Positions 5,160 to 28,397 are shown, numbered from the stretch's first letter. The stretch: 64,000 nt of DNA from Candidatus Binatus sp. (GCF_030646925.1 NZ_JAUSKL010000102.1:3457-67456); one strand, 5' to 3'. The notes: a model not told the origin generated them from the letters alone. Translations and numbers: made by a program.

Positions 5160-5405
5160 ATCACCCATCCCGTCCGCCGTGTGCGTAGCTGATGGTGCGA
5201 AAATTCCGGCGCATCCTGCTGAAACAGGACGTTTATTTAGGACGAAACGCGGATATACTGATGATCCGCAAGCAGGAAGTGCGGAAGGGTCATCCGATTA
5301 CGCTCGAGCGCAAGGGCTGGATGGGCCGATCTCGGTGCACACGGTGATCATCGCGCGCAAGAATTCGTAGCCGAGATTTTCTTTTTCTCCGCGCTGATTC
5401 TTTCA

Positions 5406-6647: not shown

Positions 6648-6663
6648 CTGGTTTGTCTCCTTC

Positions 6664-6790
6664 CTAGCAGGTTGCGGAAAAAGTGTTTTTAACCCCTGAC
6701 AACATTGATCCAAGACGCACTCTCGCAATCGTAGTAATGCTTACTCTTCGCCGAAATCGTCTTTCGCCGGGTTTTTCCGCAACCTGCTAG
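6664..6790. repeat. 127-bp unit bounded by perfect 19-bp inverted repeats
   Basis: 6664-6682 ctagcaggttgcggaaaaa is the exact reverse complement of 6772-6790 tttttccgcaacctgctag. The spacer is 89 nt. The proximal arm abuts the Shine-Dalgarno of the gene starting at 6647. Confidence 0.9.
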
Positions 6791-7177
6791 AGAATCGAGC
6801 AGCCCCTAAAACCAAATCGAGCGCATTAGACCGATTCTCGATTGCTCTCGAAATGACACGATCTGCCCGTAGCCGTAAGGGTGAACAATTTCAGGGCAAA
6901 GAAACGTCCAACCCTTGAACGCTCTGTGTGGGCGAAAACCATTCTTGCAGGGTGCGTTGCACAATCAATTGATGTTCGATAGGTCTAGGCGCGCATCGAT
7001 CCGGCCGAGACGCGGCGCTGGATCATGAACGGGATGCGTGCGATGCCGCCGCTAAAACCACGAACGGGAAAGAAACATAGCTACATCGATAGCTGGTGAG
7101 CGCAAAAATATAACGCTCAGAGCAATAGCTACTTGGATTTGCGAGAATAGCAACATCAATGTACAGGAGCGGTCAAG

Positions 7178-10913: not shown

Positions 10914-10934
10914 CTGGCAGAGGGAATTGCGATG

Positions 10935-10971
10935 GAGGGGGCTTTCAATCGAAAGCCCCCTTCTCTTTTTT
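10935..10971 (+). terminator. rho-independent terminator (potentially bidirectional)
   Basis: gggggctttc-aatc-gaaagccccc forms a 10-bp stem followed by ttctctttttt. An A-run lies on the other side of the hairpin. Confidence 0.8.
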
Positions 10972-10992
10972 AACGCAGAGCGCGGCGCGCGG

Positions 10993-11151
10993 CTAATGTT
11001 CGAGCGTGCGAACGTAAGCCTTCATCAGGGTAAGCGCTTCGTCGGTGGTCATCAGATCCATGAACAGGTTGCGTCCGAGGCGAAGGCCTTCGACGAGCGG
11101 CTTTTCGAATGCGGTTCGGGCGAGGCGCTTGATATGAGCGAGACCGGCGTG
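10993..11151 (-). pseudogene. start-less 3' gene fragment (~52 codons); crotonase-like C-terminal helix pattern; identity uncertain
   Basis: The minus frame reads GSHAGLAHIKRLARTAFEKPLVEGLRLGRNLFMDLMTTDEALTLMKAYVRTLEH followed by a stop. GC3 is about 70% by hand count. There is no in-frame start giving more than 22 aa. The upstream part is replaced by REP-like hairpins. Confidence 0.3.
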
Positions 11152-11287
11152 CGATCCGGCACCCTCACCTACCCGCCGCTGAGCGGCGGGCCTCCTCTCC
11201 CGTAAAGTAACGGGAGAGGTAAAAAACCGGTGCTCGCCGCGGGTGAGCGCTCGCTCGCGACACGAAGCGGGCGAGGTAAAAGCTCTG
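11151..11287. repeat. REP-like hairpin cluster
   Basis: gcgatccggcaccctcacc (also at 63945-63963), followed by hairpins ccgccgc-tga-gcggcgg, ctctcccgt-aaagta-acgggagag and ctcgctcgc-gacacgaa-gcgggcgag. The last two are each followed by gtaaaa. Confidence 0.7.
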
Positions 11288-13348: not shown

Positions 13349-13522
13349 AACTGTTATTCCTGCAAAATTGCTTCAAACTGACTTGAGCTAGGCTTCAGCG
13401 CGGAGCCTCGCCACTTGGGTCATTATGCATCAGCGGGGAAATCGCCATATCGTGCAGGCGATGGAGCCGGACCTAGAACCTAAGATGGATAGGTAGATAG
13501 GCGGGCTGGTGGAAGGTATGGG

Positions 13523-14155
13523 TCAGCGATCGCGATTCAGCACGGGAACGATGCCGGTCTTGATCGCGTAGTGGGTCAGTTCGAGGCGATCGCGCAGCCC
13601 GAGTTTCTGAAAAATATTGTTGAGATGAGTCTTGACGGTGCTTTCGCTGATCGCGAGGCGCTCGCCGACTTCGGCGTTTCTGAGGCCGGAGGCGACGTAG
13701 CGAATGATCTCGGATTCGCGCGGGGTGAGTTGGCGGCCGGTCGAGGTCTCCTGGCGGGCGAACTCGGTCTGGACGTTGGTAGGCATCCAGACGAGGCCGT
13801 CGGCGACGGTGCGGAGCGCGGTCATCAGGGTTTCGATCGCGAAGCGTTTCTGGATGATGCCGCGGGCGCCGAGGCGCAAAGCGCTGACGCCGTTTTCGGC
13901 GCTCTCGCTGGCGGTGAGGACGACGACTTTGGTGAGGCGCGCGAGTTGCGGAATATCCTGCATCGACCAGCGCTCCATCTGCAGATCGAGCAGCAGGATA
14001 TCGCAGGGGTTGGCGGCGACGACGGCCTGGACGTCGGACGCGCGTTCGACTTCGGCGACGACCTTGATATCCGGCTCGAGGAGGAGCAGCGACTTCAAGC
14101 CCTGGCGAAATAGGGCGTGATCGTCGGCGATTATCAGGCGGATGGAAGTTTGCAT
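13523..14155 (-). CDS. NarL/FixJ-family response regulator (REC + LuxR HTH)
   Basis: Motifs IRLIIADDHALFRQGL, ILLLDLQM, LTPRESEIIRYVASGLRNAEVGERLAISESTVKTHLNNIF. Start at ATG 14155, 2 nt after the kinase stop. Confidence 0.9.
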   Translation of the reverse strand: MQTSIRLIIADDHALFRQGLKSLLLLEPDIKVVAEVERASDVQAVVAANPCDILLLDLQMERWSMQDIPQLARLTKVVVLTASESAENGVSALRLGARGIIQKRFAIETLMTALRTVADGLVWMPTNVQTEFARQETSTGRQLTPRESEIIRYVASGLRNAEVGERLAISESTVKTHLNNIFQKLGLRDRLELTHYAIKTGIVPVLNRDR

Positions 14156-14157
14156 GG

Positions 14158-15234
14158 TCAGGCGTTGGGGATTTCGATGTCGAGTTGGGTCGAGCCGTTG
14201 CTGTGCATGTTGAGATGCCCGCCCAATTCCGCGACGCGCGATGCGATCGCCCAAGGCTGGCTTGCGGAGGCGGACATCCCGACGCCGTCGTCCTCGATGA
14301 CGATCGAAACCTTGTCGCCGATTCCGCGGACGTCGATTTTAACCAGGTTGGCCATCCCGTGGCGGCGCGCGTTGCGCAAACCTTCGAGCATAATTTGCAG
14401 AATATGCTCGCCAAGCAAACCGCGTCCGCTGAAACTCGCGCGAACGTCGAAGCGCGGGTCGGAAACCGGGGTTGAAAAATTCGACGCCAGACCCTGCTCG
14501 ACGCCGGCGAGCGAGCGCAGGTACTTGCGCACGTCGTCGTATTCGCGCGCGACGCCGGTCTGCAGATCGGTCAATTCGGCGAGGCAATCGCGCGCGCGAT
14601 CGCGACTGAGCAGCGCGCGGCAAGTCTCGAGCCGCAGGTTAACGCCCGCCAGCGCCTGAACGTAACCGTCGTGCAGGGAGCGGGCGATCGAGAGGCGCTC
14701 GGCGCGGGCCTCGAGTTCGTGCGCCTGGTCTTCGAACAGCGCGCGCTGCTGGGAGAAGAATCCGATCAGATAGCCGGCGATCGCGAGGTATACTGCGCGC
14801 ATCATGTAGAAGCTGGAAATTCCGCCGGTGGTTACGATCACCAGCAGGTAGAGGGCTACGCTCACGAGCGTCACCGCGATAGTCGGCGTCAGACTGGTGC
14901 GGATGCCGACCGCGATAATCGCGAACAGGAAGAATACATAGGATGCGCTGGTCTGGCCCTCGGTGAGGAAAGCGATCGCGGTCGCGAAGAACAGGTCGAG
15001 GAAAATCGAGATCAACTGGAGACTCGCGCGAGCGAAGTTGCGGCTCAAGGTGAAATAAATCGCGACGCTGTACGACAGATGGCAGAGCAGGATGATGAGT
15101 TCGTGGGTATTGAGATGAAAGAGGCCGCCGGAGGTGCTGGGGTCGACGTACAGGGAGAGCATCGCGACGATCGAGAGCGCGATGCGGGCGCGCGCGACGC
15201 TCAGATCGAGGTCCTTGAACTCGGAGAGTTTCAT
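14158..15234 (-). CDS. membrane sensor histidine kinase (HisKA_3 type)
   Basis: About five N-terminal TM segments, H-box SIARSLHDGYVQALAG, and ATPase motifs NARRHGMA and IEDDGVGM. Confidence 0.9.
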   Translation of the reverse strand: MKLSEFKDLDLSVARARIALSIVAMLSLYVDPSTSGGLFHLNTHELIILLCHLSYSVAIYFTLSRNFARASLQLISIFLDLFFATAIAFLTEGQTSASYVFFLFAIIAVGIRTSLTPTIAVTLVSVALYLLVIVTTGGISSFYMMRAVYLAIAGYLIGFFSQQRALFEDQAHELEARAERLSIARSLHDGYVQALAGVNLRLETCRALLSRDRARDCLAELTDLQTGVAREYDDVRKYLRSLAGVEQGLASNFSTPVSDPRFDVRASFSGRGLLGEHILQIMLEGLRNARRHGMANLVKIDVRGIGDKVSIVIEDDGVGMSASASQPWAIASRVAELGGHLNMHSNGSTQLDIEIPNA

Positions 15235-15545
15235 ACGAGCTTATAACGCGCGGACGGCGGCGGTTGAAATAGCGGCGAATCGCCGGCGCCGGCTTTCGAC
15301 GATGGGCGAGGAGGAGCGCCGCGCAGTTTCGACGCTGCCAGGAGCAGCGATTCTGCGGGGCGAAATCGCGGGGCATTGTCTGATCACCCACGCAAAAGAT
15401 AGCATCGAGGGAGAGCATCGCGGAGAACGCGAACGCCGTGTTTCTGAGCATCGGAACGTCGGCGGCGCGATGCTGTACAAAAGGGGAAACCGCGCGAGGA
15501 CGTCATCATCGGAGCGAAGGAAAACAGCCACGCAGTGACCGACAA

Positions 15546-16460
15546 ATGAGAGTGTTCACGGACTTCGGAGTCCGCGCCGAAGCTGCTGCCGGCGAGGCAA
15601 CCGCATCAAGCGAGCGCATCCGCGCTAACCTCGCGGGAGTCGGCACGATTTTCGCCGTCGGCAGTGCGCGCGGCGGCGTCGGCAAGAGCATGATCGCGGT
15701 GAACATGGCGGTCGCGTTCGCACTCAAGGGGCGCAAGGTGGCGATCTTCGACGCCGATCTGAATTCGCCGAGCGTACCGTTCATGCTGGGCATGAAAGCG
15801 CCGCGCCATTTCCCGATGATCGAAGGAATCGAGCCGGCTGCGGGTCCGCACGGACTGCGGGTGATTTCGAGCGACGTCTTTCCCGGCGGCGAGCCCGCGC
15901 CGATGACGTTTCTCGCCGACGACGGCGAACTTTCGCCGCCGGCGCAACCAGCGCTGGTGCGAATGAGTTATGGCGAGGCGCTGCAGCGGATTTTAGCGCA
16001 GACGCAATTCGGCACGGTCGATTTGATGATCATCGACGCCGCGTCGGGACTCGACCGCCTGCATACGATCGCGTCGATGATCCAGCTCGACGGGGTGCTG
16101 CTGCTGAGTCATCCATCGGGCCTCGATGCGCTAGCGGCGCGCCACACGCTCGAGGTCGCAAAGTGCAACGCGCCGGTGCTCGGAATCGTCGAGAACATGG
16201 TGGGTTTCAATTGCGACGGCTGCCGCTCGGTACGGCCGCTGTTTCCGGAAGGCGATTTGCACGGCATGGCGCGCGAGAGCGGAGTGCCGATTCTGGCGCG
16301 GCTGGGATTCGAGCCGCGGCTGGCCGATAGCGGCGATCGCGGCACGCTGTTCGTGCGCGAATACGCGGCGACGCCGACCGGCAAGGCGCTCAACGATTTG
16401 GCGTCGCGGCTCGAGACGATTCTTTTGGCGCATCCGCGCGCGGTCGAATCCGCCGCCTAG
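15546..16460 (+). CDS. Mrp/NBP35 (ApbC-like) P-loop ATPase
   Basis: Motifs IFAVGSARGGVGKSMIAVNMA, IFDADLNSPS, GIVENMVGFNCDGCRSV. Start placed at ATG 15546. Confidence 0.8.
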   Translation: MRVFTDFGVRAEAAAGEATASSERIRANLAGVGTIFAVGSARGGVGKSMIAVNMAVAFALKGRKVAIFDADLNSPSVPFMLGMKAPRHFPMIEGIEPAAGPHGLRVISSDVFPGGEPAPMTFLADDGELSPPAQPALVRMSYGEALQRILAQTQFGTVDLMIIDAASGLDRLHTIASMIQLDGVLLLSHPSGLDALAARHTLEVAKCNAPVLGIVENMVGFNCDGCRSVRPLFPEGDLHGMARESGVPILARLGFEPRLADSGDRGTLFVREYAATPTGKALNDLASRLETILLAHPRAVESAA

Positions 16461-16504
16461 CTGTCACGGTCGCGGATACGCCCGCGATTAGCACCATTCA
16501 TATT

Positions 16505-18292
16505 TTATTCAGAATCGGAGTCGTCGGTTTCGTCGAGATTGGTGAGGACCGAATCGGCGCGGCGCGAAAATTCGAACATCCCGGCGCCGCGCTTAGTCCC
16601 TGACTGAAAGCTCGCGAAGCCGAGTGAGGTGTAGATGCGCGATTGGTCGGGGCCGGGGCGCGACAGCGGGATGAAGCATTCGGCGCGTCCGTCGAAGGTG
16701 AATGTTCGGCCGTCGGGATAAGCGATTGACGCGGCAACGATATGCGGCGGTTCCTCGACCGCGTCGGTATCGATGATGAGATCGCGCAGGTCGCACTGGC
16801 GCCATCGGTTCGCGAGCATCGCACGCGCACTGCGATGCGGCTCCGGGTCGGCGCTCGCAATCGAGCGCACTTCGAGCGCGGAGGGCGCATCGTCATCGTC
16901 GAAGCAGGCCCAAATCATCCGGCGCGTGACGAAATTTTGCGGGCCGAGTCCGGTGAACGAGATGCCCGCGCGCGCGTATCCGCCGACCTGGCGCGACGCG
17001 CCGTTGATGCGAACCGTCCCTGCGGCGCGGCCGAACGCGGCGATCGCATTGGGCGCGTTGTCGGCGGGCTGATTCGGCGTCAGGATCCGAGCGAAGTCAA
17101 ATTCGCCGTCGGGCAAATCGAGCCGCACGCCGACTTCCATCGAGCCGTCGAGGCGGCCCGAGGCCAGCGCGCGCTCGATGCTGAGATAAGCGGTGGCGTC
17201 GGGAACGATCACGGCGGGGCCGCGAAATGCGAGCAGGATCGAGTTGCCGTCGCGCGTGAGCGAGAGTGGTCCGTGGCGGACGTCGGTTTCGGAGCGGGCG
17301 GGCCGGCCTTCGGCGGTGAATAGTCCGACGCGATTGCGGTCGAACAGAACCATGATGCGCGCGCCGATGCCGCCCTGGCCGACGTCGAAGCTGGCCATCG
17401 CACCGATGCGCGCGCTCGGATCGTAGAACTCGATTCCGACGCGGGTGGAGGCGGGCCCGGCGCTGGGCGCGGCGTCGCGTTTGGGAATCGCTTCGCGCGG
17501 CGCGCGATTCACGACGATCGCTTTGCGCGAGGTGGCGACGGAAGTTCCATTCGATGCGAGCGAGAAGGTCGCGGCGAGCGCGTCCTCACATCGAGCGCGC
17601 AATTCGCCGGGCATCCGCAGTGCGACGGACAACTCGAGTTGCGCGGCCTCGATCGCGCCGGTGGCGGCAATATCTGAAATCGCGCGCAACGAAGCGACCT
17701 GACTCTCGCGATGGCGCGCGGTAAACGCCTGGAGCAAATTCTGCAAGCCGCCGCCGGGATAGCGCATCCCATAGGTCGGCTTGATCCCGTGCTGGACGAG
17801 CGATTCGGCGAGATGAGTCAACGGGCCGTTGATGAAATCGTCGCTGGCGGAGACACACGCGGCGCCGGCCGGACGCAGTTCGCCGGCAATCGTGCGCAGC
17901 CCGAGGCCGAAATCGACGCGCGGCTCGATGATGTTCCATCCGTGGACCAGCAACACGACAGCGCGGCCGTGGCGCGTGACGATCGCGCCGATGCGATCCG
18001 CGATCAGCTCGAGCAGCCACGGTGCGCGCTCGACGATCTGCGCGATGCGGTTGCAGTCGAGGCGGTTGCGATCCATCGCGGAGTTGATGAGCGCGGATGC
18101 GCCGAGGCGCGCGGCCAGGTCGCGAGTGATGTCGGCGGTGTGAAGGTCGTTGACCTTCGGATTCAGCATCGAGCGGGTGCGCGGTTCGGCGCGGCCGCCG
18201 TGCGGAGCGATCAGGAGAATCGGCGAATCGGAATCGATCGCCTCGAGCCATGACTCGGCGGGCGCGATCGCGGGAAGTAGGGCTTCGGGCAT
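16505..18292 (-). CDS. 595-aa hypothetical protein; N-terminal N-formylglutamate amidohydrolase/PghP-like hydrolase fold; large C-terminal region of unknown function
   Basis: Motifs ILLIAPHGGRAEPRT, DRNRLDCNR, VVLLVHGW. The start lies 11 nt after the pcs stop. Confidence 0.6.
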   Translation of the reverse strand: MPEALLPAIAPAESWLEAIDSDSPILLIAPHGGRAEPRTRSMLNPKVNDLHTADITRDLAARLGASALINSAMDRNRLDCNRIAQIVERAPWLLELIADRIGAIVTRHGRAVVLLVHGWNIIEPRVDFGLGLRTIAGELRPAGAACVSASDDFINGPLTHLAESLVQHGIKPTYGMRYPGGGLQNLLQAFTARHRESQVASLRAISDIAATGAIEAAQLELSVALRMPGELRARCEDALAATFSLASNGTSVATSRKAIVVNRAPREAIPKRDAAPSAGPASTRVGIEFYDPSARIGAMASFDVGQGGIGARIMVLFDRNRVGLFTAEGRPARSETDVRHGPLSLTRDGNSILLAFRGPAVIVPDATAYLSIERALASGRLDGSMEVGVRLDLPDGEFDFARILTPNQPADNAPNAIAAFGRAAGTVRINGASRQVGGYARAGISFTGLGPQNFVTRRMIWACFDDDDAPSALEVRSIASADPEPHRSARAMLANRWRQCDLRDLIIDTDAVEEPPHIVAASIAYPDGRTFTFDGRAECFIPLSRPGPDQSRIYTSLGFASFQSGTKRGAGMFEFSRRADSVLTNLDETDDSDSE

Positions 18293-18303
18293 CGTGCAAC
18301 GCG

Positions 18304-19059
18304 CTAACGCGCGATCCTCAGCATGGCGCGAGCGTGAAGCGCGAACGACGCGACCAAGTAATAGACGATGAAGCTGAGCGAGACTGCAAGCATCAGGGAG
18401 TTCACCGCGGGGAGCATCGGCAGCATCACGAAAGTCACTGCGGCCCAGATGATTCCGAGCGTGAGCGTGAGCGGACGCAGCGGCACGGTGCGATTCGGAT
18501 AGATGTACTTCAGCGGAACGAACACCATCACGCTAAGAATCAAGAGGACCGCGACGTTGAAGATGGTGCCGAGGCCGAGACAGAAGAGATAGAAGGCGAC
18601 GAGGTTCCAGTAGTTGGGGAAGCCGAGGAAATAATTATCGGCAGTCTTGGCGTTGGTCCGGCAGAAGCCGTAAACGCTCGCGAGCATCACGAAGCAGGCG
18701 AGCAGGAGGCCGAGGCGACTCCCCGGGATGAGGCCGGCCTCGAGCATCAGGAAGACCGGGGCGACGGTGTAGGTCAGGTAATCCACGATATTGTCGAGCA
18801 GTGCGCCGTCGAAGGTGGGAATCCGCGTTTTGACCATCAGCAGGCGCGCGAGCGGACCGTCGCTGGAATCGATGATGGTTGCGGCGCCCATCGCGAGGAA
18901 GGATGCGCGGAAATCATGGATGGCGGCGGAGTAGATCGCGATCAAGCCCAGCGCGGCGCCGAGGGCGGTGTACAGATGTACACCCCACGCGCAGATGGTG
19001 AGCAGCCGCTGCCGCGGAGTTGCGGGCTTGAAATCGTCGGCTGCGGCTCGCGAGGTCAC
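18304..19059 (-). CDS. pcs: phosphatidylcholine synthase (CDP-alcohol phosphatidyltransferase family)
   Basis: Pcs-type motif DG-PL-AR-x12-G-ALL-D-NIV-D (IIDSSDGPLARLLMVKTRIPTFDGALLDNIVDYLTY). Also GVHLYTALGA, YFLGFPNYWNLVAF and IYPNRTVPLRPL, resembling rhizobial Pcs as I recall it. About 8 TM segments. GTG start 1 nt after the phosphatase stop. Confidence 0.75.
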   Translation of the reverse strand: MTSRAAADDFKPATPRQRLLTICAWGVHLYTALGAALGLIAIYSAAIHDFRASFLAMGAATIIDSSDGPLARLLMVKTRIPTFDGALLDNIVDYLTYTVAPVFLMLEAGLIPGSRLGLLLACFVMLASVYGFCRTNAKTADNYFLGFPNYWNLVAFYLFCLGLGTIFNVAVLLILSVMVFVPLKYIYPNRTVPLRPLTLTLGIIWAAVTFVMLPMLPAVNSLMLAVSLSFIVYYLVASFALHARAMLRIAR

Positions 19060-19060
19060 C

Positions 19061-19594
19061 TCATTTGTCCGGCTTGAAATCGCGCGGCCCGAAGTACTCT
19101 TCCAGCACCGTCATGAAGGGGCCGCACGCGCGCTGCTTTTTCACCGTCGCCATGGCCTCATCGAGCGACATCTGGCGATAAGCGCGGAGGAAAGCGATCG
19201 CGAGCGTCGGCGCGCGATTCATCCCGGCGTTACAATGCAGGTAAACGCGACCGCCGGCGCCGATCAGATCGCGGAGATCGTGCAGGGCGGCCTCGAGCCG
19301 TTCGGCCATCGCGTCGGCGCTGCCATCCTGGATTGGAGTACGCACGAAATCGATCCCGTGCTCCTGGTATTCCTCGCGCAGGCGTTGGTGGTCGAGTCCG
19401 TTCAGGCGAAGATCTTCGTCATCCTGAAGATTGTGAACCGCGGTGACGCCGTAGGTGTTTTTGAGCCACTCGATATCGTCGTGATGCGGGTACTCGCCGA
19501 CCAGCAATTCCGGCGAGATCACGCTAACCGAGGGACGGCGGTCGCCGCGCGAGGGCCGGGGCGCGCCGTCATTGCGCTTGCTGAACCAATCCAT
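19061..19594 (-). CDS. dual-specificity (Cys-based) phosphatase
   Basis: Active-site loop VYLHCNAGMNRAPT (HCxxGxxR) and the general-acid region TPIQDGS. 177 aa. Confidence 0.8.
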   Translation of the reverse strand: MDWFSKRNDGAPRPSRGDRRPSVSVISPELLVGEYPHHDDIEWLKNTYGVTAVHNLQDDEDLRLNGLDHQRLREEYQEHGIDFVRTPIQDGSADAMAERLEAALHDLRDLIGAGGRVYLHCNAGMNRAPTLAIAFLRAYRQMSLDEAMATVKKQRACGPFMTVLEEYFGPRDFKPDK

Positions 19595-19638
19595 AACCCA
19601 AATGTAACCCCGCGCACTGGCAGTATTCCAGCGTCAGA

Positions 19639-22600
19639 TCAGGTGGGGCCGTCCGGATCGGGAGTCAAAGGGACGAGATACTCCTGACATTCCAAACAGT
19701 AGGAATACTTGCCGCCATTTTCCCAGATGATGCTCCCCTCCTTGATCGTGTCGCCTTTTCGAGGAGCCGAGTCGAAATCAGGCTTCGTACTCCCGCTCGT
19801 TCCGGAAACGACGCACTTAAAGAAGGGCATCAGCGAAATTCGGTGCCCCTCGTGCTTGGCCAAAAGCTTTGAAACCCACTCATGCTTCGCAAGAGTTGTC
19901 CCATATAGTGATTGGTCGAAGCCCGCTTTGAGAGCGTTCATATCGTCGATGGTGGCATTTCCCGCTCTGAACGCCCAGTAAGGAGTGTCCGGCAGGCAGT
20001 TCCGACATACGCTAGAGTGATTCTCCAAAGCATCAAGGATCAAACCAACTTCTTTCTTCCGCTCGCCAAGTAGTCGCAGTGCGTTACCGAGATTGAACTG
20101 CGCTCCGTTCGTGGCAAACGGGACTGAACGCGAGCTGTATTCCTTCAATACCTGCCTGTAGCGGAGCACTGCTCTCTCGAGAGACTCCGTCCCAGATTCC
20201 CGCTCGCCCAAGATTTGCTCCACGAGTGCGAGAGCTCCCTGACTCGCAGCCCAGAGAAGCGGTTCGCGGTCACGATTCCGTTCGGTGAGAGCTTCGCGAT
20301 AGGCCGTTGCCGCTTCCTCCAAGTGTGCCGCGCTCGTTTCTCGCCTACCGAGACCGGCGAGAGCGTCTCCCAGGTTTTGCTTTGCAACTGACCACCGGAA
20401 AGGCACAGTCTCCCGGGTCCAAATTTGTAATGCGTCTCGTAAGGCACTTATAGCTTTGTCGAAATAACGCGGGGCGTTCTTGTACTCACCGAGCCTAATG
20501 AGTGCATACGCCAGATTGTTCTTCGAGGACGCAAAGGCCATAGCCAAATTTTCGCGCGTTCGCACTTGAAGTGACTTGTGTAAAACATCGATGGCTTCGT
20601 TCAGACCGTCGGAATTACCGTTTCGATTGGCAATAAGCGTCAATACTGTCCCCAAGTTATTCTGGGTCTCTCCCCAACCGAGAGGATCTTGCTCGAAAGC
20701 TCGTTCTTCGAGTGCAAGCCGGTAGGCGCTTGCGGCTTCCTCCAGAAGCTCGGTCCCCAACACTGTTTCCCCAAGACTCTTCAACGCATTTCCAAGATTG
20801 CTCTGCGCCTGAGCCCAATCCATAGGTACTCGCTTTCGGGTCCATTCCTTCAAAGAAAGGCGATGTGCAGCTATAGCAGCCGCCAGAGTTTCAGCATCAG
20901 ATTCTCGATTTCCGATAACCTGTAGTGCGTAGCCCAAGTTGTTCTGTACCGTTCCCCAGTCCAAAGGGAATCGTTCTCTCGTCCAGTCCTTCAACGCTGC
21001 GCGGTACGAGTCCGCCGCTTGTCTGAGCTTGTCCGTCCCTGATTCTCGTTCGCCCATCTTGAGCAGTGCGCTTCCTAAATTAGACCGCGTCGATCCCAAG
21101 AGGTCCGGAGGAAGTTCTTGCAAAGCGATTTGCTCCAATAACTTCTGAAAGATCTCGACGGCTTCTCTAAGGTGAGTGGGATCGGCTTCAAGGGTTCCGA
21201 GCGCGCCCAACGCTACACCTAGATTGTTTTGCGCGGCCGCCCAGTCCATCGGAACTTGCGTGCGCGGCCATTGGTCGACAACTTCACGGTAGTACCGAAT
21301 GGATTCGGCAAGATAATCAGTTTGACTGGTCTGTTCGCCCAGCGTTTCAAGCGCCATCGCATAAATGAACATAACTCGGGCGCGTCGTTCGGGGGTCCAT
21401 CCTGGGCGGCTATGACTACCCTCAACGAGCCTTCGGACCTTGACCACGAACGGTGCGAGGTCTTTTGCAATGTACTGTCCGCGGCGAGCGAAAAGCTCGG
21501 CACTTTGAGTAATTACCACTAATCTAAGGATATCAACCAAATCTTCCCAGAAGACTTCGGGTAGCTGAAAATTCGCTGGAAGGTATGGTCCTCGTGACCG
21601 CATGCTGGATACAGCTGTAGTCCAATAGAGTCGCGGTGCGGTACGATCGTCGTGCGAGAGAACGGTACCCCAAATGAGTACATGTGCTGACGATTCTTGC
21701 AGGAGTTCTCGCGCCCTGTCGTGCCCGACGCGCTCGCTTTCCTCTGGGATCGGCCCTTCAGGTGAGATCACGCGATCGAACCGAAGGATCTGAACGCCCT
21801 CGATATCTCTCAACGCTTCAATCATCAGACTCTCTATCTCGTGATTGTTGTCATTCACGAGATGCGCGAGCGCAACGGCAAAACGCTGCGGGTCAGCTTT
21901 TGGTATCGCCCCGCTCGCGCCCGACGGCACCGCGTCCGAATCCTTGGGAAGGGGTACTGGCCCGTTCTTCAGCAGGTGCACCGCATACGAAGCGGCCAGT
22001 TCGCATGCGTATGTCCGCCAACGACGCACATCAGCTGAGTCCTTGCGGCTGTCGGCAAGGTCGGAAATGGCACGAATCACGAGAACGCCTGGTGGTGAGG
22101 CCGCTTGGAATGCCGCGGTTGCAACGCCGGCCGCTTCCATCTCGATAGCCACCAGCTTGGGGATGAGTTCGCAGAGTCTGAGCACTTCGGCTTCGTCTGC
22201 TAACACTTTGTCGCCGCTTGCGATGGGGCCCATACGACGCTTCGGCGCGCCACTACTCGGTCGCCTGGTCGCCGTCCTTTGCCATCGACTGCCTCCCAGA
22301 TTCCTCGCGGCACCGAACAGTCGCGGATCTACATTGTGAGTCTTCGGACGAATTTCCGGACCGCTTTCCTTTAGTTTCTGTAGCTCATAGTCGACGATCT
22401 GATCGGCAACGATAAGGTCGCCCAAATGCACCCCATTCTTGAGAACCCCGCCCGCTATCCCCACTAATAGGACGTATCGGGGTTTCCATTTCCGGATCGC
22501 GTCTGTGGTAGCAGTGGCAGCATCGATCCTGCCCATTCCGAGTAGCGGAACTATTATGAGGCTATATGTTCCCTTGCTTCGGTCGGAAAATGTGGTGCGT

Positions 22601-22737
22601 ATTTCAGCCGAGTAGTAGACTCGAACGTCATCTTCTTCGGGCGGCAACTTGCTGACCGGCCGCAGCCTCATGAGCAGCGCTTGCGTTTCCTCTTCAAGCG
22701 CCGTGATGATCAGAAAATCCGCTTTCCGCTCGCCCAT
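19639..22737 (-). CDS. 1032-aa nucleoside phosphorylase-superfamily (PNP_UDP_1-like) domain fused to nine TPR-type repeats; no NTPase domain
   Basis: N-terminal motifs DFLIITALEEE, VLLVGIAGGV, VAIEMEAAGVATAA, VIRAISDLADS. Residues ~455-900 hold nine ~47-residue repeats carrying (Q/S)NLGxAL and AYRxAL. No GxxxxGK(S/T) occurs anywhere. GC is 30/60 in lines 19681-19740 and 20461-20520, versus 40/60 in 19081-19140. Confidence 0.85.
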   Translation of the reverse strand: MGERKADFLIITALEEETQALLMRLRPVSKLPPEEDDVRVYYSAEIRTTFSDRSKGTYSLIIVPLLGMGRIDAATATTDAIRKWKPRYVLLVGIAGGVLKNGVHLGDLIVADQIVDYELQKLKESGPEIRPKTHNVDPRLFGAARNLGGSRWQRTATRRPSSGAPKRRMGPIASGDKVLADEAEVLRLCELIPKLVAIEMEAAGVATAAFQAASPPGVLVIRAISDLADSRKDSADVRRWRTYACELAASYAVHLLKNGPVPLPKDSDAVPSGASGAIPKADPQRFAVALAHLVNDNNHEIESLMIEALRDIEGVQILRFDRVISPEGPIPEESERVGHDRARELLQESSAHVLIWGTVLSHDDRTAPRLYWTTAVSSMRSRGPYLPANFQLPEVFWEDLVDILRLVVITQSAELFARRGQYIAKDLAPFVVKVRRLVEGSHSRPGWTPERRARVMFIYAMALETLGEQTSQTDYLAESIRYYREVVDQWPRTQVPMDWAAAQNNLGVALGALGTLEADPTHLREAVEIFQKLLEQIALQELPPDLLGSTRSNLGSALLKMGERESGTDKLRQAADSYRAALKDWTRERFPLDWGTVQNNLGYALQVIGNRESDAETLAAAIAAHRLSLKEWTRKRVPMDWAQAQSNLGNALKSLGETVLGTELLEEAASAYRLALEERAFEQDPLGWGETQNNLGTVLTLIANRNGNSDGLNEAIDVLHKSLQVRTRENLAMAFASSKNNLAYALIRLGEYKNAPRYFDKAISALRDALQIWTRETVPFRWSVAKQNLGDALAGLGRRETSAAHLEEAATAYREALTERNRDREPLLWAASQGALALVEQILGERESGTESLERAVLRYRQVLKEYSSRSVPFATNGAQFNLGNALRLLGERKKEVGLILDALENHSSVCRNCLPDTPYWAFRAGNATIDDMNALKAGFDQSLYGTTLAKHEWVSKLLAKHEGHRISLMPFFKCVVSGTSGSTKPDFDSAPRKGDTIKEGSIIWENGGKYSYCLECQEYLVPLTPDPDGPT

Positions 22738-22888
22738 TTTGTTCTATCTTATCCGAGACTCGCGGCGCTTCCTATTGCGGCGACTACGTGGAACTATCAT
22801 CGAGTCCTCCGGTCGTCTCGGTTGTTAGCTCTAACTAACGGCGAGTAAGAGGTCGGTGGGATGTGTTAAAACGCCGGGGCACAATCAG

Positions 22889-24547
22889 TCAGGGGCGGGG
22901 GAGGGAGGAGCGGGCGTTGGCGATGCGGCGGGCGGTCTCGCCGATCGTGCCGGCGCGATGCCATCGGCTGTATTCCTCGACGGTCAAGCCGTGTGCGACT
23001 TCAAGCGCGACTGACAGTCCCGCGATTACGAACACTTCGCCGAGCACGCTGATGCGCGGCGCGAGGCCGAGTCCGCCGCCCTCCTGGCTGACGGGCGCGT
23101 GGATTACGAGGTCGGCGAGTTGCGTGAGGCCCGATTCCTTGTTGCCGGTGATCGCGATCAGTTGCGCGCCTTGTTCGCGGATGGCGGTCGCGGTCGCAAG
23201 CAGTTCGTCGGTGTTGCCGCTGTTGGAGATCGCGATGACGACGTCGCGCGGATGCACCTGGCCGAGGCTGCCGTGCAGCGTTTCCGTCGCATGCAAAAAA
23301 GTGGCGGGCGTGCCGACCGAACAAAGGAGGCTCGCGGCATAGCGCGCGACGTGCTCCGGCTTGCCGACGCCGGTCACGTGCACGCGTCCGCCGCGGCCGA
23401 GCGCGGTGCGGATGATCTCGACGGCGCGCGCGATCGCGGCGAAGTTGATCCCGGCGCGCAATGTTGCGAGTTCGGCGAGAGCGATGTCGAAAAATTCTTC
23501 AACCTCGACGGTCGAAACCTCGTTGCCCGATTCGTGCTGATCGGCTTCTGCGCGCGGGCGTGGCAGCGTGAGCGCTGCGCCATACAGATCGACAATTTCG
23601 TCGCGGACTTCGAAGCCCGAGGGAAAAGCGCCGAGACGAGTGACGCAAATTGCGCCGGCGGCATTTGCCAACCGGCCCGTTTGCTCCCACGGCAGATTCA
23701 TCCGGATGCCGGCGAAGATGCCCGCGAGGAACGCGTCGCCGGCGCCGGTCGAATCGACTTGCTTCACCTTGAAGGCGGGCACGCGCACGCTGGCGCCGTC
23801 GGCGGCGATCGAGCATCCTTTGTCGCCTTCGGTGATTATCACGGCGCGACTGCCGTATTTCGCGCGAATCGATTCGGCGAGTTTCAGCGGATCGCGGCCG
23901 TTGCCGGCGATCAGTTCGCGCGCCGCCGCTTTGGCGGGCTTGAGGTAAGTCGCGAGCTTCAGCACGCGTTCGAGTTCCGCGCGCGTACCGAGCGATCCGA
24001 TCGCGTCGGACGGGGGTACATCGACGTCGAGAATCGTCGGAATCGAATGAGTGCGCGCAAACAGCAGAATCGCGAGCACGGTGCGGAGAGGTAACTGCGA
24101 AATTTCGGTCGAGATCAAATTGGCGCGGCGAATGAATGCACCGTGGCGGCTACGGACTTCGGTCGGCGTGAGTTCGCCGGTAGCGCCGCGCGACATATAG
24201 ATTGCGCGATCGCCAGCGGTATCGACGAAGATCGTCGCGAACGCGCTCGCGCTGCCGTCGAAAGTAAGATGATGGCGGATGCCGAGATGCTCCATCCCGT
24301 CGCGTAGAAACACGCCGTGGCGATCGTCGCCGAGCTTGCCGAAGATGCCGGTCCGCAGGCCGAGCACGCGCGCCCAGCCGAGATGATTCAGCACCAGGCC
24401 GCCGACCTGGGTGCGCTCGATCGCGGCGCTCGCGCTGTGCGCGTGCAGCAGGATTTTTTCGTCGGCGCGGATGATGCGGGGGGTGCGATAGAACAGGTCC
24501 ACGACCATGCTGCCGCATCCGACGACGTCGAGTTTGTGGTCAGCCAT
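22889..24547 (-). CDS. bifunctional PfkB-family carbohydrate kinase / SIS-domain (KpsF/GutQ- or PHI-like) protein
   Basis: Kinase motifs DVVGCGSMVVDLFY and VDSTGAGDAFLAGIFAG. SIS motifs VHVTGVGKPEHVARYAA and VVIAISNSGNTDEL. Start at ATG 24547, overlapping the upstream stop by 8 nt. Confidence 0.8.
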   Translation of the reverse strand: MADHKLDVVGCGSMVVDLFYRTPRIIRADEKILLHAHSASAAIERTQVGGLVLNHLGWARVLGLRTGIFGKLGDDRHGVFLRDGMEHLGIRHHLTFDGSASAFATIFVDTAGDRAIYMSRGATGELTPTEVRSRHGAFIRRANLISTEISQLPLRTVLAILLFARTHSIPTILDVDVPPSDAIGSLGTRAELERVLKLATYLKPAKAAARELIAGNGRDPLKLAESIRAKYGSRAVIITEGDKGCSIAADGASVRVPAFKVKQVDSTGAGDAFLAGIFAGIRMNLPWEQTGRLANAAGAICVTRLGAFPSGFEVRDEIVDLYGAALTLPRPRAEADQHESGNEVSTVEVEEFFDIALAELATLRAGINFAAIARAVEIIRTALGRGGRVHVTGVGKPEHVARYAASLLCSVGTPATFLHATETLHGSLGQVHPRDVVIAISNSGNTDELLATATAIREQGAQLIAITGNKESGLTQLADLVIHAPVSQEGGGLGLAPRISVLGEVFVIAGLSVALEVAHGLTVEEYSRWHRAGTIGETARRIANARSSLPRP

Positions 24548-25736: not shown

Positions 25737-26423
25737 TTATTCGACGCCAAGCCCAATGTGGGTGATGAAACTCCAATGCTTCTGGTCGAGCGACGCGTAG
25801 GTCTCGAGCTTGCCTTCGATCGTGAGTTTGTAGTTTCCGTCACCGGTGAGCGCGCCGACCGGCGGATTCTTGTACCAGAGCGCTTTCTTGCACGCGGCGA
25901 CCATCATCTTGTCGATCGCGGCTTTGCCCGAATGTTGCTCGACGATTATTTCGGTGAGCTTGCCGTTTTTATCCATGACCGCAGTGAGGATGACGGCCCG
26001 CGTGTCGGTGGACATCCTGATGCCGGAGATTTCGTCGGTGCGTTCGGCGAGCGCAACCTGCGCATACACGCGATCGAGCAGCACCTGCGCGAAGTTGGCG
26101 TACTTGGCGGCTTTGTCGTTGAGCAGGCGTTGATCGCCGGGATGCTGATCGTCGCCGGCCTGTCGCACGAGTCCCGGCGCGGCCTGGTAAGTGACTGGTG
26201 CGTTCGGGTCGCCGGTACTGCGCAGCACCGCGGTCTGCTTCGACAATTCAGTTTTCAGGGGATTCACCGGCTCGGTCGAGAGCGTCGAGAGGTCGGTCAC
26301 GAGATGCGGCCGATCGGCGCCGGCGACCGGGGCCGGCGGCGGCGGAGGAGTCATGCCGCATCCGCCGACGGCGAGCGCCGCAAGCAGGCAGGCATTGAGT
26401 GAAAGTAATCGAGCGAATTTCAT
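25737..26423 (-). CDS. lipoprotein, unknown function (possible TonB-C-like fold)
   Basis: Lipobox LAALAVGGC followed by a Pro-rich linker. Its ATG overlaps the upstream stop (ATGA). Confidence 0.7.
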   Translation of the reverse strand: MKFARLLSLNACLLAALAVGGCGMTPPPPPAPVAGADRPHLVTDLSTLSTEPVNPLKTELSKQTAVLRSTGDPNAPVTYQAAPGLVRQAGDDQHPGDQRLLNDKAAKYANFAQVLLDRVYAQVALAERTDEISGIRMSTDTRAVILTAVMDKNGKLTEIIVEQHSGKAAIDKMMVAACKKALWYKNPPVGALTGDGNYKLTIEGKLETYASLDQKHWSFITHIGLGVE

Positions 26424-28021
26424 TTGGCGTTTCCCTGATCCTTGTCCAGCGCGAGAATTGCCGGGCGCGCGTCATTATAGTCGGCGACGAACGCGTCAAA
26501 CAGTTCCTCGCCCAGCGCGCGTTCCTCGGTGCGAACCACGTCGTTGTGCTGAGTGGCGATCGCGTCACCGATGCGCGCGAGAAATTCGAGCGTCGGCGAG
26601 TAATCCAGTTCGGCGGCGCCACCGCCCGAGAAATGATACATGCCGTTGGCGAGGCGCGCCGAGGAAAGTCTGGTCCGCATCCCGCCGTTGCCCTGCGCCA
26701 TCACGCGCAGAAATCGCCCCGCGATGAAATCCATCGCCTTGTGAATTCCCGGCGGCGCGATCAACTCGGGCACCGCGTTCATCCGCGTGTCGATAGTCAC
26801 CTGCTCAGCGTTGCGGCGGTAGTCGGTGGTGAAGCCGACGTTGGCGAGGCCGAAGTTCATCGCCATGCTGACGATGTGGCCGGTCGCGAGCGTGCGATAG
26901 CCTCCGTGCTCGAGCTGGTCGAGCGCGACGCTTTCGCCGGCCGGCTTGAACGCCGAATCGAACGGCGTGAGCAGGCCGTTTCGACCCATCACAGAGGCGC
27001 GCATATGGCCGCGATCGAAGGATGAGCGGCTCCAGTAATTGCCGCGCGAATCGTACACCGCCGAATTCGCGGTCACTGCCGGCGCGAGCTTGCGATAGAA
27101 ATCGTACAGATGCGGGAAATGCTTGAGCGCATCGAGATGCACTTCGGCATCGACGTTGAGCAACACGATCGGGCCCGCAGGCGACTCAAATTCGTCGAGC
27201 ACGTTGTTGAATTTCAGATACTCGTCGAACTTGGCCGCGAGATGCGGCATCTGGCGATGGAATCGCTCGAGCGCGGCCTTGTCGAAGTGGTTGAAACTTC
27301 CGGGCGCGGTATCCCACGGCGGTTTCAGCTCGCCGTACGACTCGCGGAGTGCCTCCGCGATCGCATCGACGATTGCGCCGATACCGTAGGTGTCGGTCAT
27401 CACCTCGCCGCTGAGCGAGCCAATCACGTTCGATACGTTGTTCGGTGAGGAACCGGGCGCAGGCTTGAGTGCGAATAGCCCGGAGAAACGCTCGGCCTCC
27501 TCGGGGCTGGTGTACTGTTTGGTCAGCGAATACAAATAGTCGGCGGCGCGCGGTTGGCCGGCGACGGCGATCTGATGAATGCCGTCGGGCATCACGGTCC
27601 ACGGGATGTCGGTGTTCGAATAAATCGCGGCGGCGCGAATCATCGTCGATTGCCGCGGCGGCAGGAGATCGACGACGTGCTGAAGCGCGGGCGATAGCTG
27701 CGGATGAAACGACAATTTGCGCTGGAAGGTCAGTTGCCGATCCATGATCGCGAGCGCGCGCGCGGCACGATCGGGTCCGGGCGATGCGAGTTTCAGGATC
27801 GGTGCGAACAAAGTGAGGTTGTCGGGATAGAAACCCGCGGCAGGTGACCTTGCTTCAGGCGCGGATAGCTTCGCGTCATGAGTCGGAGGTGCGACGCGCT
27901 TTGAATCGGAGCGCGGGGGCGCGGCGCTGGCAGAACCGCAAATCGTGCTGAAAATGAAAATCGCGAAGATGGCGAAGGGAACGAGCAGGTAGCATCGCGG
28001 GCGTTGCGCGTGGATAATCAT
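26420..28021 (-). CDS. secreted 533-aa hypothetical protein
   Basis: From track ORF 26420..28342. Start moved to ATG 28021, giving [33 protein letters not shown] (signal peptide). The longer form would overlap rpmE. Confidence 0.7.
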
Positions 28022-28099
28022 GCGCGACCTGCGAATTGTGCCCGATCCGGCGCGATGATAAGGTATAAAGTAACCAGGGAACGAAACCGAGAAGTACAA

Positions 28100-28339
28100 A
28101 TGAAAGCTGGAATCCATCCCGAATACCGCCGCTGCATGGTGACGTGTGCGTGTGGCAACACTTTCGAAACGCATTCGACGTCCAAAGAGATGCACGTCGA
28201 GGTTTGTTCGAAGTGCCATCCGTTTTATACCGGCACGCAGCGGCTGGTCGATACCGCAGGCCGCGTCGAGCGCTTCAACCGCAAATACGGCATCAAGAAG
28301 CCGGCCGAAACGGTCGTCGAAAAGCCCGCAGAAAACTAG
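28100..28339 (+). CDS. rpmE: 50S ribosomal protein L31 (Zn-ribbon type)
   Basis: [27 protein letters not shown]...[11 protein letters not shown]. Confidence 0.95.
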
Positions 28340-28397
28340 CATAGCAACTCCCGCCGCCTGCGATGCGCCAGCATCCGGGTGCGCGGGGGAGAATTAT

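Follow-up and report, generated by a model that had tools for sequence, protein, structure and literature searches.

The question raised by this locus is what a single gene that joins a phosphorylase-superfamily domain to a long repeat array, with no NTPase switch in the same polypeptide, does in Candidatus Binatus sp. In the window, that is, the whole 64,000-nucleotide stretch of DNA that was analysed, the open reading frame at 19639..22737 on the minus strand is complete and encodes 1032 amino acids plus a stop codon. The protein is ordered as PNP domain, spacer, α/β core, helical neck, nine TPR repeats and Cys/His tail, so that the PNP-TPR gene described in the initial annotation was borne out, with exact boundaries. 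Its start codon is backed by the collinear N-terminus of a 78% identical orthologue (P0002), and a public MAG protein, with no other name than 'tetratricopeptide repeat protein [Candidatus Binatus sp.]', has the identical sequence. The gene has a GC content of 0.553 and a GC3 of 0.58, compared with a GC3 of 0.73-0.83 in eight neighbouring genes, and only one other place within the 64 kb holds a 3.1-kb segment as GC-poor. The low-GC islet proposed earlier thus holds in direction but not in size, since the GC content is not about 0.50 and that of the adjoining phosphatase gene is 0.627, not 0.67. We propose, with a probability of roughly 0.55, that the protein is a standalone, STAND-less effector-sensor conflict protein of an anti-phage or anti-mobile-element, abortive-infection type, acting as a single polypeptide without an NTPase switch and probably depleting (d)ATP.

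As regards the effector, residues 1-262 (21952..22737, on the minus strand like all the protein features below) form a PNP_UDP_1 domain recognised by Pfam, by PADLOC and by its catalytic motifs. The Pfam match covers residues 10-253 with E=1.4e-21, and all of the phosphorylase hallmarks quoted in the initial annotation were located. The catalytic motifs are intact (EEE at 15-17, GIAGG at 93-97, EMEAAG at 199-204 and SDLAD at 225-229), and D226, E199 and G204 are kept in every PNP-bearing relative (alignment A1). Two PADLOC models match the domain, 'Effector PN-superfamily' at 2.3e-25 (87 bits; CBASS-type) and PDC-M60C at 1.1e-24, and it is 50-57% identical to PNP domains fused to NB-ARC, NACHT, TIR, CHAT, caspase, EAD and FGE-sulfatase modules. 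The immune PNP clade at the N-termini of Avs and NLR proteins is an ATP nucleosidase by experiment, and the Avs PNP domains have been placed in the Cap17 clade (Rousset et al., 10.1101/2023.01.24.525353). To judge from the relatives that share its architecture, the N-terminal domain would be a member of the Cap17/DtcC ATP-nucleosidase clade; its substrate could differ from ATP/dATP, and its role could be to produce a signal, not to deplete a metabolite.

The region of ~190-195 residues (~277-470) in front of the repeats had been left unassigned, with the possibility that it hides a degenerate NTPase. The AF2 model divides it into a domain of ~110 residues and three helices. This orphan α/β core (residues 277-385; 21583..21909), delimited by the AF2 model, profile search and conservation, was modelled with a mean pLDDT of 90.5 and a pTM of 0.87, and shows the topology β-α-β-α-β-β, in one reading with a further β. 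It is a non-P-loop domain: Foldseek returned P-loop proteins for the core only at probability 0.1-0.3 and TM 0.17. A motif search over the whole 1032-residue protein found no Walker A motif, as first noticed, and the Pfam models NB-ARC, NACHT, AAA_16 and nSTAND gave no match at E<=1, while the same models do match the relatives P0081 and P0038. No Pfam match was obtained for the linker even at E<=10, and the core had no PDB sequence match and no fold match at E<=0.001 in PDB or BFVD. The neck (residues 386-470; 21328..21582), defined by AF2 helices and invariant columns, comprises a conserved loop, PYxPxNFxLPxxFWxDL, and three long helices at residues 394-416, 424-439 and 449-469 (AF2 positions 123-145, 153-168 and 178-198) that connect the core to the TPR array.

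The repeat array (residues 471-900; 20038..21327) contains nine TPR_10/TPR_12-type repeats whose anchors follow an exact 47-residue period from residue 504 to 881, in full agreement with the nine tandem ~47-residue repeats first described. Pfam assigns the array to TPR_10/TPR_12 (TPR_10 at 2.7e-12), and repeats of this type are 30-43% identical to TPRs of CHAT, caspase and TIR-adjacent plasmid proteins; the array is presumed to be a ligand-binding solenoid. The tail (residues 901-1032; 19642..20037), described from alignment A3 and AF2, consists of capping helices and a small three-stranded β module (pLDDT 88.7). Like the linker, it had been considered unassignable, and it indeed has no Pfam match even at E<=10, no PDB sequence match and no fold match (best E=1). 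The cysteines noted in it at the outset hold in part: C911, C1014 and C1017 are invariant across 15 relatives, as are H907, H962 and H965, but C914 is not conserved. These six invariant residues form a putative metal site, and the tail also carries the invariant motif GxSGxxxPxF/W...GDxIxDGxxxWEN. It is found only in the close subfamily and could not be aligned in P0023, P0024 and P0027.

The core is the most conserved part of the constant body. Identity with relatives is 0.67 / 0.58 in the core, 0.54 / 0.30 in the TPRs and 0.5 / about 0.2 in the tail, and the invariant residues of the core, many of them polar, include D282, R285, H292, D296, Q316, D321, R322, E332, W356, G357, W372, T374 and R380. 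A conserved core with a variable TPR array and tail appears to be an NLR-like conservation pattern. A profile search with the core gave a family of 953 clusters. Nearly all of this family comes from metagenomes, of soil and peat lineages such as Binataceae. Among close relatives the body (core, TPRs and tail) is collinear at 50-60% identity while the N-terminal domain changes, and homology among all relatives starts at 'IPKADPxRF' (residue ~277), whatever the N-terminal domain (alignment A1). The Pro/Ser/Gly-rich spacer that precedes this point (residues 263-276; 21910..21951, alignment A1) is the recombination junction for N-domain exchange. The exchanged domains are PNP, Mrr-like REase, HNH-like, trypsin-like, TIR and DUF676/PGAP1-type serine esterase. 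Pfam matches on them include Trypsin_2 at 6e-7 and 6.5e-10 and TIR_2 at up to 7e-27, with the REase and HNH assignments (Mrr_cat_2 at 3e-4 and HNH_2 at 6.5e-3) below Pfam cutoffs. The body is a reusable chassis with interchangeable toxic N-domains, which is the strongest new support for the earlier interpretation. Because the family swaps many toxic domains on one sensor body, the protein studied here is probably a self-contained anti-invader protein without the usual ATPase switch.

The gene is horizontally acquired, a non-syntenic single gene without a conserved partner. It is absent next to PfkB-SIS in 80/80 Binataceae loci, and the 22.9-34.4 kb part of the window is collinear with relatives only as far as the PfkB-SIS stop codon. 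The 151-bp upstream intergenic gap (22738..22888) is the breakpoint of synteny against the 80 Binataceae genomes; the downstream gap is 44 bp. The comparison of related genomes suggested in the initial annotation returned absence from the same locus, with a breakpoint at the gene boundary. The 78%-identical orthologue sits in a different locus, and relatives are often found near integrases or transposases, with IS1595, ParDE, recombinase/rve/PIN and phage integrase plus primase-polymerase among the genes close to them.

Not all members of the family carry an enzyme. In 108 of 185, a short N-terminus and a transmembrane segment stand at the same junction, and a charge bias in these members (p=6.5e-5) predicts that core and TPRs lie outside the cytoplasm. 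This membrane-anchored majority sits uneasily with sensing of invaders in the cytoplasm alone, and it would allow the chassis an ancestral function outside immunity. We consider it rather unlikely that the chassis family serves chiefly outside immunity, as a membrane-associated TPR scaffold or receptor, for instance in envelope or stress signalling, its forms with an enzyme, the PNP form included, being metabolic or signalling enzymes under regulation instead of suicide effectors. Such a role would agree with the anchored members, with the lipoprotein-type signal peptide of one member, with the position of the transmembrane-only relative P0027 among ordinary metabolic genes, and with the periplasmic proteins (TolB N-domain, PelC, LpoB) that the core weakly resembles in fold. 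It would also agree with the neighbourhoods: apart from one weak protease-type match, none of the genes next to the target or to seven relatives is a known defence gene, in a sample far too small to test enrichment. However, the set of TIR, PNP, REase, HNH, trypsin and lipase-like esterase domains is a characteristic immune/conflict effector repertoire (PMC8195603) that housekeeping regulation leaves unexplained, and the enzyme-bearing forms have a foreign composition, lack synteny and lie near mobile elements.

Somewhat less probable still is that the protein is a conflict component needing a partner encoded elsewhere, such as a STAND NTPase, a vWA-MoxR ternary system or a second-messenger receptor, which would be recruited via the TPRs or the core, the PNP domain being an effector or signal generator only within the complex. 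Very similar PNP domains do occur in proteins with NB-ARC, NACHT, EAD or TRADD-N modules, and the PNPase domains of ternary systems have been proposed to release the base as a second messenger (Kaur et al., PMC7159879). Nevertheless, no gene is conserved beside the target or its relatives in seven independent contexts, Pfam found no EAD or Death-like adaptor in the protein, and no second copy of the core domain is present in the 64-kb window or in the relatives' loci examined. That the gene came in recently and is a passenger without function or in decay is very unlikely. Only one copy is present, in a variable region, relatives lack it, and a promoter scan, which is uninformative for the host phylum, gave no promoter-like signal; yet the 3.1-kb reading frame is unbroken and has kept all catalytic residues and all residues invariant in the family, and at least 8 contigs from several samples carry the full-length 78%-identical orthologue. 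Effectively refuted is the possibility, which the initial annotation had asked to be checked, of an ordinary MTA/SAH or purine nucleosidase, here with TPRs attached for localisation: although the best solved-structure matches of the N-domain are MTA/SAH nucleosidases (E=2.8e-11 in a PDB sequence search) and its motifs are MTAN-like, it scores above no housekeeping equivalog cutoff of NCBIfam (NF004079, 89 bits vs 169; TIGR01704, 51.8 vs 73.8; other housekeeping models also fail), it shares 50-57% identity with the PNP domains of the conflict-type proteins named above, close relatives carry a nuclease, TIR or protease domain in its place, and the multidomain architecture, the foreign GC3 and the absence from the syntenic locus in all 80 related genomes led us to reject an MtnN/Pfs identity.

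The preferred reading, a self-contained effector-sensor protein, has precedents. The initial annotation had supposed that an effector plus repeat sensor without a STAND switch could be a distinct architecture, but the kind is already known in DSR1/DSR2 and in two families of Kaur et al. (2021). DSR2 becomes active when a phage tail tube protein binds to it directly (PMC11850899), and DSR1 shares its sensor with Avs7, the STAND module being absent (PMC13581612). Like the target, both are single polypeptides that begin with a metabolite-depleting enzyme, continue with a middle domain that has no structural homologues and end in an α-solenoid sensor, with no NTPase; they differ from it in their SIR2 (NAD+) effector and in having HEAT-like repeats instead of 47-residue TPRs. 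Neither a SIR2 domain nor the PADLOC Dsr model matched the target at E<=1, and no DSR2 chain was among the PDB sequence or fold matches of its parts; the middle domains show no detectable similarity to each other in sequence or in fold. The TPR-GreA/B-C-PIN proteins are also standalone, with ~13 exchangeable N-terminal effectors including PNPase, TIR, REase, HNH and trypsin (Kaur, Iyer, Burroughs & Aravind 2021, eLife 10:e70394, PMC8195603). They share with the target a single gene with few conserved neighbours, a constant TPR region, a variable N-terminal effector and the lack of a STAND NTPase, but have GreA/B-C and then PIN C-terminal to the TPRs, whereas the globular core of the target is N-terminal to them and of an unrelated orphan fold. 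PF20698, PF24407 and PF01272 gave no match in the target, although the first two were found in P0065, a PNP-bearing member of that family, and the 132-residue tail had no GreA or PIN fold match.

In the bacterial TRADD-N proteins, a central domain has been proposed to bridge the domains on either side and to keep them inactive as long as no signal has come in (Kaur et al. 2021, PMC8195603). They resemble the target in a variable N-terminal effector (TIR, PNPase, HNH, REase and others) and a small central α+β domain at the variable/constant junction; their C-terminal repeats are TPR, HEAT or pentapeptide, those of the target TPR. The TRADD-N fold is RRM-like (β-α-β-β-α-β) with a conserved 'uS' motif at the β2-β3 turn, whereas the target core is predicted to have a helix between β2 and β3. 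Identity of the core with TRADD-N was rejected, as PF13820 and PF09034 gave no match (with P0081 as positive control), the hhalign probability was 0.06% and 1F3V was not among the fold matches. By these comparisons the target family falls outside DSR1/DSR2, TPR-GreA/B-C-PIN and TRADD-N and would be a separate family of the same general kind. The Avs and bacterial NLR-like STAND proteins and fungal PNP-NLRs are similar in their exchangeable N-terminal effectors, which include an experimentally verified ATP-nucleosidase PNP (10.1101/2023.01.24.525353), in their C-terminal TPR sensors and in a conserved centre with a variable sensor, and P0081, P0042, P0066 and P0067 carry PNP types near-identical to that of the target. 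STAND receptors, however, have an NBD-HD-WHD NTPase of ~350 residues with Walker A (GxxxxGK[ST]) and B, where the target has the ~110-residue core and three helices. With no Walker A, no NTPase Pfam match and no NBD-HD-WHD fold, membership of the STAND receptors was rejected, and the earlier label 'NLR-like' holds as an analogy, not as homology. Cap17 (CBASS) and DtcC (Detocs) likewise use a PNP_UDP_1 domain as a cell-arresting effector, a likeness that for the target comes from the PADLOC match, but they belong to multi-gene operons, in which a cyclic-nucleotide sensor (TPALS/SLOG) or a phospho-receiver domain regulates them, whereas regulation by a fused TPR body in a single gene is proposed here.

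We hypothesize that the TPR solenoid and the tail module bind an invader-derived ligand, most likely a protein, and that binding would change the oligomeric or conformational state through the α/β core, which occupies the position of TRADD-N or of the DSR2 middle domain in other systems. The N-terminal domains would then be brought together or re-oriented. In the PNP superfamily, oligomerisation is obligatory and the active sites lie where subunits meet, so that such a rearrangement could switch the nucleosidase on. If Cap17, DtcC and NLR-type PNP domains are a guide, adenine would be cleaved from ATP/dATP and the infected cell arrested. One chassis could drive all of the N-domains because all are enzymes known or expected to respond to induced proximity. 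A bolder reading, which we regard as improbable, is that core and TPR body define a new and sizeable class of induced-proximity immune receptors, with the core as an NTP-independent oligomerisation switch. This class would come in two formats, one soluble and cytoplasmic, as for the PNP protein here, and one single-pass transmembrane with an extracytoplasmic TPR sensor. With a cytoplasmic TIR, nuclease, protease or esterase, the latter would be, in layout, a counterpart of Toll-like receptors that signals contact with the invader across the membrane; this too we hold to be doubtful.

The family is invisible to current defence finders because it is annotated only as 'TPR repeat protein'. Should the immune reading be wrong, it would still be a newly delineated domain family, of modest interest. 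If it is right, this gene encodes a compact one-gene immune receptor in which sensing is coupled to ATP destruction by a domain of ~110 residues of unknown fold and not by an ATPase, and in its relatives to NAD+ cleavage, DNA cutting, proteolysis or lipid hydrolysis. This would be a third way for repeat sensors to switch effectors on, besides STAND NTPases and DSR-type bodies, and the ~950 sequence clusters with their natural effector swaps would provide a tractable system for domain exchange. The membrane-anchored majority, in turn, raises the testable possibility of trans-membrane immune signalling in bacteria.

The PNP-TPR protein encoded at 19639..22737 (minus strand, 1032 codons, exactly as first delimited) belongs to a modular, hitherto undescribed family centred on an orphan core domain, the effector-solenoid kind of architecture being itself already known. 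It consists of an N-terminal PNP domain, a spacer, an α/β core with a helical neck, nine TPRs and a Cys/His tail. Pfam assigns TPR_10/TPR_12 to the C-terminal half, and the tandem repeats of about 47 residues described in the initial annotation were found as nine units, whose anchors are spaced exactly 47 residues apart between residues 504 and 881. The gene is also GC-poor, as had been noticed, but the difference had been exaggerated (gene GC 0.553, adjacent phosphatase 0.627), and the clearest contrast is given by GC at the third codon position (GC3), 0.58 in the target versus 0.73-0.83 in eight neighbouring genes. The protein sequence is identical to that of a Candidatus Binatus MAG protein, and family members are named only 'TPR repeat protein' or 'hypothetical' in the source databases.

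The family joins one body to exchanged N-terminal domains. The relatives P0003-P0021 are collinear with residues ~277-1032 of the target at 50-62% identity but lack the PNP domain; some of them begin with a ~180-aa Mrr-type restriction-endonuclease-like (REase) domain with GxD…QCK as its motif (Mrr_cat_2 at E=3e-4, which narrowly misses the cutoff), and others with a Cys-rich HNH-like domain weakly matched in Pfam. Among the best profile hits, the core is preceded by TIR_2 (up to 7e-27), Trypsin_2, a DUF676/PGAP1-type serine esterase, HNH, an Mrr-like REase or PNP. The N-terminal domains are exchanged at the Pro/Ser/Gly-rich spacer (residues 263-276), and homology starts at 'IPKADPxRF' in all cases. 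The core is the most conserved part of the body, its identity being 0.67 with the REase group and 0.58 with P0023 and P0024, which are distant PNP forms. Divergence is faster in the TPRs (0.54 and 0.30, respectively) and in the tail (about 0.5 and about 0.2), as would be expected if the transducer is constant and the sensor variable. Matches in the plasmid and phage collections were confined to the TPR array or to PNP alone, and the best two plasmid proteins have no core domain. At 4117-7067 of one such locus, on the Methylobacterium nodulans plasmid pMNOD03, a 724-aa TPR protein without a core domain has an array 43% identical to that of the target over ~500 residues; a recombinase precedes it, and 60 bp after it comes a TIR-domain protein that has a hydrophobic segment at its C-terminus. 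This gene pair may represent a two-gene relative of the fused architecture.

The region between the PNP domain and the repeats, formerly regarded as a linker, holds the core. An alignment-based AlphaFold2 model of residues 272-470 was confident (mean pLDDT 90.5, pTM 0.87). In it, residues of about 277-385 fold into a compact β-α-β-α-β-β(-β) unit, and three long helices connect this unit to the TPRs. Neither Pfam (E<=10) nor a profile comparison with PDB sequences nor Foldseek against PDB or BFVD (E<=0.001) gave a match for the core domain; its weak best fold matches were small α/β domains (YjjX, the TolB N-domain, PelC and LpoB; best TM 0.38), and P-loop proteins such as KaiC reached probabilities of only 0.1-0.3 with a TM of about 0.17. 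A STAND module requires about 350 residues and Walker motifs, and the target has neither. The Walker A pattern, already reported as absent, occurs nowhere in the target protein, and this, together with the small non-P-loop topology and the lack of a P-loop fold match, rules out a cryptic NTPase in the linker. Since this search for a hidden P-loop NTPase came out negative, the earlier claim that the NTPase switch is absent holds, and the target is switch-less in this respect. A word-indexed search with the linker alone returned only 15 short proteins; the core-domain profile, searched exhaustively against 1.84 billion representative proteins, recovered 953 clusters at E<=0.001, of which 277 reach E<=1e-30.

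Judged by its sequence, the N-terminal domain is an immune-type PNP and no housekeeping enzyme. PNP_UDP_1 covers residues 10-253 (Pfam, E=1.4e-21), and the active site is intact: the motifs first quoted were located in the target (GIAGG 93-97, EMEAAG 199-204 and SDLAD 225-229) and, with EEE at 15-17, make up the catalytic constellation of MTA/SAH-nucleosidase-like enzymes. Against the NCBIfam equivalogs for MTA/SAH nucleosidase, futalosine hydrolase, AMP nucleosidase and DeoD, the target scored far under every cutoff (best 89 bits versus 169), and solved MTA/SAH nucleosidases (MTANs) match the domain only at E about 1e-11. A housekeeping MTAN is ruled out by these scores and by the absence of the gene from 80 Binataceae loci. 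The PADLOC models for the CBASS-type 'PN-superfamily' effector and for the candidate PDC-M60C match the target at about 1e-25, and its PNP domain is 50-57% identical to PNPs found at the ends of NB-ARC, NACHT, AAA_16, TIR, CHAT, caspase, FGE-sulfatase or EAD proteins. Enzymes of a PNP clade that occurs in CBASS (Cap17), in Detocs (DtcC), at Avs N-termini and in fungal NLRs release adenine from ATP/dATP, and expressing them alone is toxic (Rousset et al., 10.1101/2023.01.24.525353). From these resemblances, we infer that the target PNP belongs to this ATP-nucleosidase clade.

The initial annotation suggested that an effector with repeats but no STAND switch could be a distinct architecture. The switch-less character stood, but not the new category, as proteins of this kind are already in the literature. 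DSR2 combines SIR2, MID and a HEAT-like solenoid in a tetramer activated by a tail-tube protein (PMC11850899), and the Avs7 sensor also occurs in the STAND-less DSR1 (PMC13581612). In the standalone TPR-GreA/B-C-PIN system, 13 different effectors can occupy the N-terminus (PNPase, TIR, REase, HNH and trypsin among them), and in the bacterial TRADD-N proteins a TRADD-N domain stands between an N-terminal effector, which varies, and TPR/HEAT repeats at the C-terminus (Kaur et al. 2021, PMC8195603). Two proteins from our searches contain these domains according to Pfam: P0081 (PNP-TRADD-N-NB-ARC-TPR) has TRADD-N (PF13820) and P0065 (PNP-TPR-…-PIN) has PIN-TPR-GreABC (PF20698), though neither family was detected in the target. 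The core profile aligned to the TRADD-N domain of P0081 with a probability of 0.06% (hhalign), which together with the missing Pfam match rules out that the core is TRADD-N; its predicted topology, moreover, is not RRM-like.

The tail (901-1032) is specific to the close subfamily, and H907, C911, H962, H965, C1014, C1017 and the motif GxSGxxxPxF/W…GDxIxDGxxxWEN are invariant in 15 sequences. Modelled at pLDDT 88.7, the tail comprises capping helices and a β module of three strands, with nothing similar in PDB by fold (best E=1) or by sequence, and it is a reasonable guess that a putative structural metal site staples the β module to the last helices. A word-indexed search with an 86-aa tail query, short for such an index, gave no homologue. 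Identity of the tail with GreA/B-C-PIN is ruled out by the lack of a Pfam match, which P0065 did give, and of a fold match. By analogy, the target would resemble the DSR, TPR-GreA/B-C-PIN and TRADD-N systems in its working, yet it is a member of none of them, because the Pfam, hhalign and topology comparisons were all negative; it is apparently a further, undescribed chassis.

The gene was acquired, and its genomic context supports mobility. The 80 Binataceae loci were retrieved with an orthologue of the upstream PfkB-SIS gene (64-93% amino acid identity), and within 10 kb none of them has the PNP-TPR gene, the downstream DSP phosphatase or the pcs-like gene. The window is collinear from 22.9 to 34.4 kb with all relatives examined, and this collinearity extends to the PfkB-SIS stop codon and no further. 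In four of eight compared relatives (L012, L016, L021 and L083), a block of luciferase-like monooxygenases that matches 8.5-10.9 kb of the window follows PfkB-SIS at a distance of only 2-3.5 kb; therefore, the target stands at the edge of a ~12-kb region variable with respect to Binataceae relatives (~10900-22890), containing a permease, a histidine kinase, a ParA/Mrp ATPase, a 595-aa ORF, the pcs-like gene, the DSP phosphatase and the target. The neighbourhood of the 78%-identical orthologue P0002 is unrelated, and no neighbour gene recurs across seven independent contexts of the target and its homologues. Enzyme-bearing relatives adjoin genes for IS1595, ParDE, a recombinase with rve integrase and PIN, or a phage integrase with a primase-polymerase. 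For instance, the PNP-type P0023 lies beside an integrase, primase-polymerase and HTH element (locus L091, 5796-10544), and the REase-type P0007 among recombinase, MerR, PIN_12, DUF3800 and rve integrase genes (locus L090, 1530-7494 and 12057-12644); these surroundings are likely integrative elements or variable islands carrying both genes as cargo. A search for the chassis protein in metagenome contigs gave one weak locus.

The DSP phosphatase, the pcs-like gene and the 595-aa ORF (16505-18292, minus strand, no Pfam match) were rejected as partners: they accompany no homologue, their GC3 is native-like and PADLOC matched none of them. The phosphatase (177 aa, dual-specificity, 19061-19594, minus strand) lies 44 bp downstream of the target and is probably unrelated to it, because its GC3 is native (0.775), it is absent beside every target homologue and it has no PADLOC match; its Pfam matches also include DSP-PTPases from polymorphic toxin systems (Tc-R-P, 1.8e-7). 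When ten unannotated neighbours were scanned with PADLOC, no known defence system appeared. The non-syntenic loci, the lack of a recurring neighbour, the mobile-element genes near relatives and a phosphatase that does not travel along support the target as a mobile, self-sufficient single gene. Elsewhere in the window, ORFs of 228 aa (25737-26423) and 640 aa (26420-28342), both on the minus strand, have no Pfam match. A second GC-poor stretch at 5200-7400 (0.51-0.57), as low as the target gene, includes a 440-aa protein with a PG_binding_1 domain (5406-6728, minus strand). The adjoining 314-aa biotin carboxylase ORF (4056-5000, plus strand) looks truncated, since just the first ~40 residues of Biotin_carb_C are present, and the PG_binding_1 ORF may likewise have been acquired, disrupting a native gene.

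The majority of the core-domain family carries no enzyme domain, and has a short N-terminus and one TM segment. A hydrophobic 19-mer between conserved flanks (…IYxRFG-TM-WxW..I..LPGV…) begins about 38 residues ahead of the core in 108 of the 185 proteins whose core is N-complete. K+R are richer on the N-terminal side of the segment (2.86 vs 1.86; 55 vs 20 proteins, sign test p=6.5e-5), so that, by the positive-inside rule, the core and TPRs are predicted to lie outside the cytoplasm. Some TM members have a TIR, REase, trypsin or esterase domain N-terminal to the segment (TIR-TM-core and others), and P0149 has a lipoprotein-type signal peptide. In two members, P0176 and P0138, the N-terminal module of juxtamembrane motif and TM segment is duplicated in tandem, and P0176 has a second, degenerate core copy. 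The body may function in two compartments, or else the TM segment may be an oligomerising membrane effector of atypical topology. The enzyme-less majority, with its predicted extracytoplasmic TPRs, keeps alive a non-immune, envelope-related origin of the chassis, which we consider unlikely. The same features motivate a reading of the transmembrane forms as TLR-like receptors, which is more doubtful still.

For the target itself, we favour a ligand-sensing mechanism. The TPR solenoid, with the tail, would bind an invader-derived ligand; the α/β core would pass this binding on as an oligomeric or conformational change, and the N-terminal domains, so juxtaposed, would be switched on. Activation by proximity is argued from established knowledge, as self-association is a known or expected requirement of the exchanged enzymes: PNP-superfamily oligomers have active sites at their interfaces, TIR NADases assemble, the nucleases are dimeric and the proteases occur as zymogens. 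By analogy with Cap17 and DtcC, the likely output would be adenine released from ATP/dATP, followed by growth arrest. Overall, with a probability of roughly 0.55, this member of the family would be a switch-less PNP-TPR protein that senses a ligand and arrests growth by releasing adenine from (d)ATP.
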